64,000 nt of DNA from Euglena gracilis. Lineage: Eukaryota. A model generated the notes under the pieces. It had not been told where the DNA came from, searched no databases, and saw only the letters and a list, made by a program, of their open reading frames with translations. Positions 1 through 51,800 of this stretch are shown here, one piece after another. The DNA is taken from the NCBI GenBank assembly GCA_039621445.1, contig CP154954.1, positions 36,565,703 to 36,629,702 on the forward strand. The letters run 5' to 3'. The stretch's first letter is position 1, and every line of letters begins with the position of its first letter. The position numbers and the translations under genes are program-made.

Positions 1-823
1 GGTCAACGTCACCCCACGCACTCCGCTGGGGGGAGGACGCAGGGTTCGATATAAGGACAGGTGGGGGGGGGTGGTCCGGACCCCCCCCTGCGGGCCAGGA
101 GGGGGGGGGGTGGGGGGGGACACCCCCCCCACCTAAACAGGTGCGCGGTCAGGGTGGCCGAAAATTTTTGACCCCCCAAAACGACCAAAAGTGCCATTTT
201 GGGCACTTTTTGGGCAAAAATGTGCCAAAAATGCAAAAAAAATTTCGGCGCGAAGCGCCGGAGGAAAAAATTGACCCTTTTTGGGGGGGGTCAATTTTTG
301 CCCCCGAGGGTCGGTCCGGACCCCCCTTGCAGGTGGGGGGGGGTGGTCCGGACCCCCCCCTGCGGGCCAGGAGGGGGGGGGGGGGGGGGGGGGGGCACCC
401 CCCACCTAAACCATGTACGCCCTCCTTATATCGAACCCTGGGAGGACGGCTGTAGTGCGCAAAGAGCCCCCGGCGGCGTGGGCGAGTGGTCCAGGTCCAT
501 TGTTGTGCTGCGGCGGCTCAGCGGACGGGCGGGGGACACGTCGTGGGCCCACGACCCCGGGGAGTGCCCCTCCCTCGCCGTACCGGAGTCTGCAGGGCGA
601 GAGAGAAGAAAGGAACCCGCTTGGCACTGCTGCAGGTTGGCCCAAATCCGTCGTTTCTGCCGCAGGGCCCTGAGGTTCTGTGGCATGGCAATGTGCCGGG
701 GACGCACGGTATTGCGCGGGATAGGGGACCTGCGCCGCCCGGCACACCACCGCTGCCGCCGCCCGGCACGCCGTCCGGCTTCAGGACGACGGCGGCCACC
801 ACCGTCCGGCACCGCCGCAGCCC
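1..823 (-). CDS. Exons after the PDZ domain (~823-730; 590-441 continuing at 31-1)
   Basis: GLRRCRTVVAAVVLKPDGVPGG.. | DSGTAREGHSPGSWAHDVSP..ALQPSS[element]PQRSAWGDVD. Confidence 0.5.
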
Positions 824-48800: not shown

Positions 48801-51800
48801 TGTCCACAAATGTCACAGATCTCACCGGCATTGGTTTGATCACCTCACACCTCTTGGTGCTACGAGTTTAATGATTTTTTTTTGATTTGTCCAAAAATTA
48901 GCCCCCTGTTTGTCCAAAAACAAATCCGGGGAAATGTCCTGCCTGCAAAAAAAAAAAGCACAAAAAATGGACAAAAAAATGAGTCCTTTGCCCGAAATGT
49001 GCAAAAATTTGCCAAAAAAAGGGCAAAAAAAACACAAAATTGCAAAATTTATCAAAAGCATGCAAAAATGGCACGAATATTACTGAAAGAAATCATGTGA
49101 AAATATGAGGGAAATCTCATTTTGAAAAAAACTAAAACTCTCAAAAAAAATTCCGAAAAAATGGAAAAATGCCAAATGTACAAAATTGTGAAAAATTGGG
49201 AAAGTCACAAAATTGCAAAACAAGAATGAGAGCACGAAACCTCCCAACAAAAAAAATGCTGAAAAAAAAGCAAAAATATACAAAAAAAAAAGCACAAAAG
49301 TGCACATTTTGGAAAATTTCAAAAAAGGGCAAAAATTGTGCATTTATGTGAAAAAGTGTTCTGCGCATTGACTAATGTCCAGTGCTACACCAGCCGTCAG
49401 GCAGAGTCCTCTCCTCCGCAGGGGGGGGGGGGGGCTGAAATAATGTTGTGCAAACCGATGCCCAGCTTTGAATTGAATTTTTTTGAAATTCCCCTGTTTT
49501 TGTTCAAGACGTCTGCACACACGTGCACACACAGGTGCACGCACGCACACCGCTCCCATCAGTGAACCCTCCTCTCTCACCCGTCCGCACCACTGCACTC
49601 CGCTGCGCATCTCCGCCCCCGTCTCCGTCGCCACCCTCGCCGGTGATGGGGTCAGTGCTGCGTCCTGGCCACTGCACCGGCGGCTGCCCCGCCCCACCAG
49701 CTGGCGGGGCTGCCGCCGCCCCCGGCACGCTCCCCACCGCCCGCAGGGAGCGTTGTGGGGGTTGGGGTACCATGGAATGACCCCGCCAGGCAGTGTGGTC
49801 GAAAAAGTCTCGTCCCTCCCTCCCGTCCCCCGCTGCGCAGCCTCTCCCTGGGCGTGAGTGCCTCGTCCGTCCGCCCGGGGGTGCCCGGCGCAGCTGCGGG
49901 GAGGTGCAGAAAGACAGGGCGGAAGGACGGTGAATGAAGGTTCCACCAAATACAGCACAAACCCTGCGACTGATTGCACCCCTGAGGTTCATTGGGCCGG
50001 CAAGGCCAAAGAAGACAAGTTTTGGCAGGTGCAGTTGTTGCAGTGACAGTGAAGCCGCTGCCCCCCCCCCCCTTCCGCCCGACCAAATGCAGCCAAGTTC
50101 CTTAACCCAGATTTCCCCAAAATTCGGGGTGGAGGTTCCGGGGCCCACTCAATTAGGACCCCTTGCCCCATTGCTGCTCGTTGGCTTGGCTTGAGTTCAG
50201 AGCCAAAACAAGACTTGTTAGAAACCAGAAAAATTTCGCGGAAGCATGCCAAGGTCGTAACGACAACTTGTATCCCAGGGTTCCCCAGAAACTTGTGCTG
50301 ACGACTTTCACCAGCCAAAGAATAAAAAAACAAAACAAACGGGTGAGAAAATGGGATGAAAACCATGATGATGATGATGATGATGATGATGATGATGATG
50401 GACAGAGAAGCTGCACAGGAGATGGCGGAGAGGATGTGATGGAAGGACTGGGGAGGGTTGATCCCACCCACCACCCATGGGTTTTGGGGATGCCATACAG
50501 CTTGCAGAGAGGGTTTCCGAGCACAGAGGGCAAAAAGGAGAGTAAGTGTCACCCCCTTTCTTTTGGTTTTTTGTTTTTCCCTTTGAAGCAGGCATTTGCT
50601 TAAGGACCCCGGGACTCACTTAATTGTGCTGGTTTGCAATTATTCGTGTCACTGGGAAACCCTGAGCGCAGTAAATGACTGCCCTCAAAAGGAAACCCCT
50701 CCAAAGCCCAGCGACAAGCTGCACATATGCGTACCGCCGCCCTTGCTCAGCTGCGATGTGCCGCCCTCTGCGCTGTTCCGCTGAGCAGTGCCGGCTCCGC
50801 CCGCTGCCGTACCAGAGCTCTCGCCGCCAGCACTGACCCCACCACCACCAGGCACCTATAGTCAAGCCCCGAAATTTCTCCATTTTAAGCCATTTTGGCC
50901 TGTAGGTGGGGGACCATAACTTCGAAAAAGAATTAATTAGACCATAACTTTGGATCTCCATTCAAGAAAACACACTGAACATCCTCGTTCAGAGCCCTTC
51001 AATTACCTTCACACTTTCTTCACCCTGAATAACTGCAATGGGAAATGGCTGGACCAACCTGATTTTTTTTGCAAATATTGCAACAAGAACAGCAAAGCAA
51101 ACAATATAAAACAACAGCGACCTGTGTGCTTATCCAGAAGAGAGGCCCAACAGTCCTTTGTTGCGGTAAGCAAATGCAAGGGTTCGAGGATAGCCTTCTT
51201 CACTTTTGATTATTATTTTGATAAAGCTGCTCGATTGTTTTGGAAAAATACACAACAGCACGAACCTAAATGCAATAAATCTGAAACAAACTCGCACATC
51301 CAAAAGCATTGGACGCATCGTTTGGGTTTAGTAAAAAATTTCACAGAAAACAGGAACTGTGGGGGGGGGAAACAATGCATACCGACAGACAAAGGTGGCC
51401 TTGCTGTGCTCCTCCACCAACCAACGTTCACAAAAAAATTACTTCTTGCGGAAAAAAATTCTCATTTCAGGCCACGTTAGGCCAGTTTGGGCCATTTCAG
51501 CTCTAGGTGCCTGCCCACCGCCGCTCCACAGGGCGGAGCTGCCGCCGCCGCTCGACCCAGGGCGGTACACCGGCAGCCGCCCAGTCCCGCTCGCCGGCGA
51601 CGCTGCCACCGCCGGCGGCACGCCCCCCGGCCCTGCTGGCCACAGGGAGCAGCGGCCGGGGGCGGGGGGAGGAGGGGAGGCACCACAATGCCCAGGCACC
51701 CGTTCTTTGGAGAATTCCTGGCAGGAAAGGTGCCCCGTCACCCGCCCACAGCCTGCGTTGCGGCTGCCGAGCATGGCAGGGTGACGACTGGTAGCCTGGA

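Follow-up and report, generated by a model that had tools for sequence, protein, structure and literature searches.

Eight-base-pair target-site duplications of inverted-repeat elements and the 3/5 geometry of nonconventional introns in a 64-kb window of Euglena gracilis

The 64-kb stretch of Euglena gracilis DNA analysed here (the window, by which the whole stretch is meant) has a G+C content of 54% with numerous poly-G/C tracts. It is nuclear DNA of the E. gracilis type, in which two multi-exon minus-strand genes match transcript-derived E. gracilis proteins of EukProt. Besides these genes, the window contains a family of paralogous exon copies and nine listed elements with terminal inverted repeats (TIRs), several of which are bordered by perfect 8-bp direct repeats (Table 1). 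Five introns of the two genes lack a GT-AG register and are nonconventional, and each of them is exactly 8 nt longer than the element delimited by its terminal helix. How euglenid nonconventional introns arose and how they are removed have been standing questions since the 1990s. Based on the element flanks, the empty insertion sites and the intron dimensions, it is proposed that the 3-nt and 5-nt spacers of the nonconventional splice sites may together correspond to one target-site duplication (TSD).

Inverted-repeat elements and their flanking 8-bp repeats

Candidate elements were collected by a window-wide scan for at least 12 complementary positions among the 14 terminal ones over 60–4000 bp, with no assumption of CA…TG ends or of a TSD length. 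The scan gave 4857 paired positions, and 2132 candidates were left after a low-complexity filter. Exact 8-bp flank repeats were found in five of the 2132 (40–440, 24171–24366, 28497–29437, 31231–31580 and 46326–46611), and all five are of the CA…TG type, to which only 141 of the candidates belong. Among these 141, the flanks agree at 8/8 in five, 7/8 in two and 6/8 in one; among the remaining 1991, agreement is 8/8 in none and 7/8 in two. The elements with imperfect flanks are 16103–16265 and E2 (7/8) and E4 (6/8). When the right flank was displaced by 2–6 nt in five controls, none of these gave an exact 8-bp repeat, and exact flank repeats of 9–13 bp were absent among the 2132 candidates. At 7 bp there were seven exact matches, comprising six copies of one tandem-repeat artefact and the CAGGG element at 43144–44266, and at 6 bp there were five, three of which are the same elements one base off. 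The 8-bp flank-repeat pattern of the CA…TG elements is real, specific for 8 and far beyond chance.

Four of the elements (E1–E4) had been named in the original prediction, which described them as interrupting exons, as having CA(G/T)…(C/A)TG inverted ends with 8-nt flanking duplications, and as representing three unrelated TIR families. Their coordinates and inverted ends are all as described. The flanking duplications are exact in E1 and E3 but not in E2, with 7/8, or in E4, with only 6/8. The separation into three unrelated families is put in question, as the elements have CAGG or CAT starts in common and some also the TTTAAG motif. Five further elements (16103–16265, 24171–24366, 31231–31580, 43144–44266 and 46326–46611) join these four, and all nine begin with CA. 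As in E1 and E4, the ends of the CAGG elements among the five are CAG…CTG. A T-rich run leading to TTTAAG about 10–16 nt from the end and followed by C/G runs was observed in common at 24171–24366, 46326–46611, 20674–22205 and 28497–29437, and on this resemblance the families formerly called unrelated may be related. The repeat that hosts the element at 31231–31580 has an approximate empty copy at 44310–44390.

Table 1. Elements, introns, exon copy and genes in the window
Feature	Position	Strand	Length	Description
E1	40..440		401 bp	ends CAGGGTTCGATATAAGGA (CAG…CTG), 18-bp perfect TIR; TSD GGAGGACG 8/8 at 32–39 and 441–448
E2	20674..22205		1532 bp	ends CAT…ATG; flanks GCCGGCTC/TCCGGCTC 7/8; within codons RSRP of exon copy c20
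E3	28497..29437		941 bp	ends as E2; TSD GCCGGCTC 8/8; same site in exon copy c28
E4	50849..51513		665 bp	ends CAGGCACCTA (CAG…CTG), TIR ~12/13; flanks ACCACCAC/CCCACCGC 6/8
Element	16103..16265		163 bp	TIR ends CAGGGTGGCTGC; flanks CCGCAGCC/CCGGAGCC 7/8
Element	24171..24366		196 bp	TIR ends CAGGGGTTTTTTTAAG; TSD ACCACAAC 8/8; flanks apparently non-coding
Element	31231..31580		350 bp	TIR ends CAGGGCAGAA; TSD CCCTGGGG 8/8; nested in another repeat; apparently non-coding
Element	43144..44266		1123 bp	TIR ends CAGGGTTTCCCTC (CAGGG); 7-bp exact flank repeat ATAAATA, 8-mers out of register
Element	46326..46611		286 bp	TIR ends CAGGCTTCTTTTTAAG; TSD GTACCAAC 8/8; probably non-coding DNA
Uninterrupted paralog exon c34	34458..34808	-		117 codons (…DDDVIVVRSRPSLANLTA…); empty site with one GCCGGCTC, 34682–34689
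Nonconventional intron 1, PDZ gene	6001..6113	-		GGG-CAGGCC…GGCCTG-GCACT/g; flanks 4/8
Nonconventional intron 2, PDZ gene	5567..5936	-		GCC-CAGGCC…GGCCTG-CGGTT/g; flanks 5/8
Nonconventional intron 6, PDZ gene	1127..1443	-		GCA-CAGGCC…GGCCTG-GCCCC/g; flanks 6/8
Nonconventional intron 6, EG_transcript_15627-like gene	52820..53004	-	185 nt	177-nt element + 8; GAC-CAGGCTTCTC…AGAAGCCTT-CCCTG/g; flanks CCCCGGAC/CCCTGGAT 6/8
Nonconventional intron 4, EG_transcript_15627-like gene	53389..53495	-	107 nt	3+5 nt beyond a helix AGGGGAG/CTCCCCT; no CAG/CTG; flanks 4/8
EG_transcript_15627-like gene (P0001)	52551..56033	-		8 exons, 7 introns; EukProt E. gracilis match
EG_transcript_7597-like gene (P0003; PDZ gene)	483..6176	-		PDZ domains (precomputed in search listing); aa 2–267 within window

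Self-comparison of the window revealed one block of about 350 nt in five paralogous copies (c20, c28, c34, c40 and c52), which include filled and empty forms of one insertion site. In the filled copies c20 and c28, E2 and E3 each lie between two copies of the 8-mer GCCGGCTC, the right copy in c20 being TCCGGCTC. Like c34, the second empty copy c40 carries a single GCCGGCTC, at 40856–40863, and no element. The occurrence of one GCCGGCTC at the empty sites against two at the filled sites confirms that the 8-mer was duplicated on insertion. Because E2 and E3 occupy the same site of paralogous exon copies, they do not count as two separate cases. The two elements have unrelated interiors, and what they have in common are 25 bp at the left end, 19 bp at the right end and a block of about 210 bp in opposite orientation. 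The non-coding flank of the c20 and c28 paralogs is nevertheless 88–93% identical, and independent insertions at one site or replacement of an interior are both possible explanations of this mismatch. As a separate observation, the interior of E2 holds two copies of a telomere-like CCTAACCCTAACCCTAA motif (21636–21680 and 22051–22095) within an internal direct repeat of 126–130 bp with 87% identity.

The paralogous block is a minus-strand frame of 117 codons with CAG/GT-like and AG/-like borders that the copies have conserved. In the four close copies, the ratio of non-synonymous to synonymous differences (pN/pS) ranges from 0.11 to 0.56 and is below 1 in all pairs; for c20 and c28 it is 0.30, a value that comes from five synonymous and four non-synonymous changes (Fisher P = 0.066). 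The more diverged copy c52 (77% identical) encodes part of the transcript-derived protein P0001, as the last mapped exon of the EG_transcript_15627-like gene, and its differences include synonymous third-position changes. The 117-codon frame, the pN/pS values and the identity of c52 as a P0001 exon indicate that E2 and E3 interrupt coding sequence. When the element and one TSD copy are taken out in silico, both c20 and c28 retain the open 117-codon frame with intact exon borders. The single TSD mismatch of E2 is at one of the 3 nt that, on the coding strand, are expected to belong to the intron, and the predicted mRNA would hence be the same as that of the empty copies. On this coding (minus) strand, position 6 of the TSD of E2 and E3 is G, which fits a purine start of the 3' exon.

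Nonconventional introns of the transcript-matched genes

The introns were resolved at the protein level by an exhaustive fit of P0001 and P0003 to the window. Both proteins differ from the window at few residues, and on these sequence differences their source is another allele, strain or (close) paralog. A third candidate, P0002, was dropped as transcript evidence because it is an unspliced read-through open reading frame (ORF). Fifteen introns were resolved, ten with a GT-AG register and five without. In all five of the latter, the length of the intron equals the helix-to-helix element plus 8 nt, a relation that is unaffected by sliding of the junction. CAG stands at +4 to +6 in an allowed register of four of the five introns. 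Three of them show the full N3-CNG…CNG-N5 arrangement with a purine at the start of the 3' exon, in the form N3-CAG…CTG-N5 known from the published code, and in the 3/5 register the first base of the 3' exon is G in five of five. The element-plus-8 register with CAG was present in none of the ten GT-AG introns, as judged in part by inspection.

In the intron at 52820–53004, the protein sequence YPGY demands that position 8 of the flanking 8-mer be taken from the downstream copy, in agreement with a division of the 8-mer into 5+3. This intron has 9 nt in common with the perfect-TSD element at 46326–46611 at one end (CAGGCTTCT…) and 13 nt, exactly, at the other. In a test for introner-like elements, the two were the one pair found of an intron and a non-genic insertion with a common end type, and their interiors are unrelated. 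The 3' motif of this protein-verified intron, at 52820–52827, is CTT and not CTG, a difference that could be allelic or represent a variant that is tolerated.

The original prediction proposed that the last five exon and first three intron nucleotides should be compared with the last five intron and first three exon nucleotides, with identity expected over 8 nt, and this comparison was run on the five introns of the window. The numbers of identical positions are 4, 5, 6, 6 and 4, or 25/40, against a mean of 2.75/8 (about 14/40) in a control of 20 cross-pairings of the same flanks (binomial P = 2.6e-4). Twelve other registers gave 5–20/40. Identity peaks at register 0, with 25/40, and no intron reaches 8/8. 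Within the 8-mers of the five introns, a side observation is that the intronic N3 equals the first three nucleotides of the 3' exon at 12/15 positions, compared with 13/25 for the other five TSD positions.

Splice geometry and element ends

A possible mechanism is proposed for the relation between the two sets of features. On this reading, the window carries at least eight non-autonomous cut-and-paste TIR elements with CA(G/T)…(C/A)TG ends, mostly CAGGG or CAGGC, and their insertion duplicates 8 bp of the target. The nonconventional splicing of Euglena may recognize the helix formed by the element ends, with one cut 3 nt beyond the helix on its 5' side and the other 5 nt beyond it on its 3' side. 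Since 3+5 = 8, the RNA would lose the element together with exactly one copy of the TSD, and the pre-insertion message would be restored. The +4/-8 consensus could then be the transposon end as read from the splice junction. The reading that nonconventional introns are at least in large part old insertions of TIR elements of the 8-bp-TSD type, removed together with one TSD copy, has good support within the window, short of proof, and is given a probability of roughly 0.6. We infer that the listed elements would be spliced in this way; the causal direction may be either that the machinery was fitted to the transposon or that the transposon was sieved by the machinery, and the superfamily, discussed below, is inferred likewise. 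As first put forward, the claim was that the +4/-8 geometry equals the TIR ends plus one 8-nt TSD and leaves no scar. The TSD length, which is specifically 8, the published knock-in-tested code, the element-plus-8 length of five of five introns and their residual flank identity of 25/40 support it, but the ends of E2 and E3 are off the code.

The idea of an origin of euglenid nonconventional introns from miniature transposable elements with inverted repeats (MITEs) is itself already published. It was proposed in 2013 (Milanowski et al. 2014, PMC3935182), and in a 2024 review TIR is the label given to the CAG/CTG pairing, while the repeats at the junctions are called TSD-like (PMC11282704). Euglenid nonconventional introns, as described in these sources, resemble the present elements in that CAG at +4 to +6 pairs with CTG at -8 to -6, with spacers of 3 and 5 nt and with slidable borders that come from junction repeats. 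The splicing code N3-CDG…CH'G-N5-6/R was defined by knock-ins (Nomura et al. 2025, PMC12501133), and in 87,843 non-slidable introns of E. agilis, CAG was found three nucleotides inside the donor site and CTG at -8; according to the authors of this genome-scale study, the origins of the introns are still unclear. Furthermore, an 8-nt direct repeat flanks the newly gained gapC intron 4 of E. agilis ACOI 323 (Milanowski et al. 2016, PMC4770533). This recent nonconventional intron has the 8-nt repeat that the model predicts, whereas its authors regarded the repeat as a possible footprint of double-strand-break repair and not as a TSD. In the available portions of PMC3935182, PMC11282704 and PMC12501133, a TSD length, a superfamily, the equality of 3+5 with one TSD, and element families with perfect TSDs or empty sites were not found. 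The equality was likewise not found in a full-text literature search, which covers few subscription journals and no supplements. The TSD-length equality, the element families and the empty sites were thus not found in print, and the 3+5 = 8 idea refines the published MITE-origin hypothesis and makes it sharply testable genome-wide. If the sum of the spacers is the TSD length, the 3/5 geometry gains a simple rationale in scarless message repair, one-step intron gain is explained, and the candidates for an autonomous transposon are narrowed to groups with an 8-bp TSD.

Several observations weigh against this reading. The flank comparison comprises five introns with partial identity (4–6 of 8), the excess over the ten GT-AG introns, whose mean is already 3.6/8, is modest (P = 0.02), and the comparison is weakened by register -1, which reaches 20/40 owing to homopolymer runs. 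Each intron allows 2–9 protein-compatible registers, among which the one with CAG at +4 was chosen by the analyst. Two of the five introns depart from the full arrangement, one with CAG…CTT (52820–53004) and one with AGG…CCT (53389–53495). The CTT end is to be read beside the finding that a CTG-to-CTA change abolished the splicing of EaNC-INT1 and that single substitutions in CTG did so for a test intron (PMC12501133). In the same knock-ins, the 5' spacer had to be 3 nt, and a 3' spacer of 6 nt was tolerated besides that of 5 nt, while 38.8% of the annotated nonconventional introns of E. agilis are without the signature (PMC12501133). Among the elements, the CAT/ATG ends of E2 and E3 do not fit the CDG/CH'G code, and no transposase was detected among the 20 window ORFs, from the vicinity of the elements and from codon-periodic blocks, that were scanned against Pfam. 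A transcript protein of the c20–c40 type was not found among proteins of 123–392 amino acids with the ORF of the empty copy as query. The PDZ-gene exon ending at 483 (…MDLDHS) is followed by an intron that holds E1 at 42 nt from its beginning, and the P0003 residues that come next are not encoded in the window; by this protein match, E1 is intronic, not exonic, and fails as an exemplar. The flanks of E4 are GC-rich but only weakly periodic in their codons; Pfam gave no match for them, and the search for transcript proteins was not directed there.

One alternative concerns the superfamily, and a group other than hAT, namely Merlin, P or an undescribed group with an 8-bp TSD, is given slightly less than an even chance. 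The hAT assignment is a resemblance only, in the length of the TSD and the CAG ends. Ac, hobo, Hermes and Tol2 typically have ends of the CAG(G/A)G type, which argue for hAT, and hAT transposons prefer the target nTnnnnAn. The elements are like hAT-type MITEs (Ac/Ds-like) in their 8-bp TSD, short CAG-starting TIRs and non-autonomous copies of 160–1500 bp. They are unlike them in that the target pattern is not evident, T2 and A7 occurring together in one of the five perfect TSDs and A7 alone in one, in a small sample from a GC-rich genome, and in that the scanned ORFs showed neither a transposase nor a hAT dimerisation domain or BED finger. The same two deficits speak for another superfamily, as do two Merlin families of E. 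gracilis with DDE transposases and 8-bp TSDs, hence from the same host and with the same TSD length (PMC8101967). The TSD here fits the 8–9-bp range of Merlin; against Merlin, its TIRs carry a conserved terminal 5'-GG (PMC8101967), whereas all nine elements start with CA, not GG.

The second alternative is that E1–E4 are MITE insertions of the ordinary kind and do not themselves undergo splicing as nonconventional introns, with E1 residing inside a larger intron, E2 and E3 having disabled two redundant paralogs, and E4 lying in non-coding GC-rich DNA. This is a serious possibility, held somewhat below an even chance. The position of E1, the departure of the CAT/ATG ends from CDG/CH'G (PMC12501133), the few changes behind the pN/pS of c20 and c28, the lack of a c20–c40-type protein among those of 123–392 amino acids and the weak periodicity at E4 are in its favour. 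It is opposed by the retention of the 117-codon frame and its borders in c20 and c28 after removal of the element and one TSD, by pN/pS below 1 in all paralog pairs, and by the CA/TG pair, which is the most conserved one according to Milanowski et al. (PMC3935182) and is kept by E2 and E3. The periodicity of G+C at third codon positions is too blunt an exon finder to decide E4 or 16103–16265. The description of the elements as exon-interrupting, which comes down to three independent sites, is confirmed for the one coding site of E2 and E3, refuted for E1 and only putative for E4. This alternative touches the exemplars that had been chosen earlier, not the geometric rule, and the removal of 8-bp-TSD elements with one TSD copy is retained as the preferred reading.

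That the agreement is a coincidence is improbable. In that case the cutting enzyme would set the 3/5 geometry by measuring from the end of the helix, with cuts staggered by 2 nt, the introns would stem from other routes, such as double-strand-break repair or the mutation of conventional introns, and the 8-bp-TSD elements would simply be resident MITEs. In favour of coincidence, the 8-nt repeat was taken by Milanowski et al. for a footprint of break repair (PMC4770533), the flank identities are partial (4–6 of 8) against a mean of 3.6/8 already in the GT-AG introns, one nonconventional intron (53389–53495) is without CAG/CTG, and the TIRs of the resolved introns are short (about 7 nt of CAGGCC in common). 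Against it, 3+5 equals the sole TSD length found for CA…TG elements, the intron ends (CAGGC…) match the element ends, with one 13-nt terminal match to a perfect-TSD element, and flank identity is maximal at register 0.

The preferred reading, in which 8-bp-TSD elements are removed with one TSD copy, has a known counterpart in the introner elements of Micromonas and Aureococcus (Huff et al. 2016 via PMC11282704). In those systems also, a DNA transposon with TIR and TSD turns into an intron on insertion, and the TSD helps to define the junction. In contrast to the present elements, introners are removed by the spliceosome, with one GT/GC or AG site either brought in by the element or recruited from a 3-nt TSD (PMC11282704). 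The window elements have no GT-AG ends and an 8-nt TSD, and their cuts would be measured from the terminal helix.

A more literal version of the model can also be formulated, and it is considered unlikely. The nonconventional splicing code would then be a transposon-end-plus-TSD code, with the 3 and 5 nt measured from the TIR helix of one 8-bp-TSD group. Each new exonic insertion would be born as a scarless intron in a single step, and bursts of the transposon could have made nonconventional introns the majority class. That the spacers differ by 2 nt might reflect an RNase III-like staggered cut, followed by ligation that leads to circular introns. Circular introns have reportedly been found by others. 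As an idea only, the cut offset of 5-3 = 2 nt resembles the 2-nt 3' overhang of the RNase III type.

Other features of the window

Some further features were noted outside the elements and introns discussed above. A different TIR pair (ACTAAAAAAGTACCC…) encloses 1572 bp at 26582–28153 with a 6-bp exact flank repeat, GAATTC, and may represent another transposon family with another TSD length, or chance. The ORF at 47888–48361 on the minus strand has a weak reverse-transcriptase match (PF00078, E = 1.1e-5, under the Pfam curated cut-off) and is probably a retroelement fragment, judging from this match. Long G/T-rich tandem-repeat arrays are located at 1995–2630, within GT-AG intron 4 of the PDZ gene, and at 7105–7358. 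In the same gene, a GGVPGG repeat at 752–769 differs between the window and P0003 by an in-frame length of 12 nt, and this difference is not an intron.

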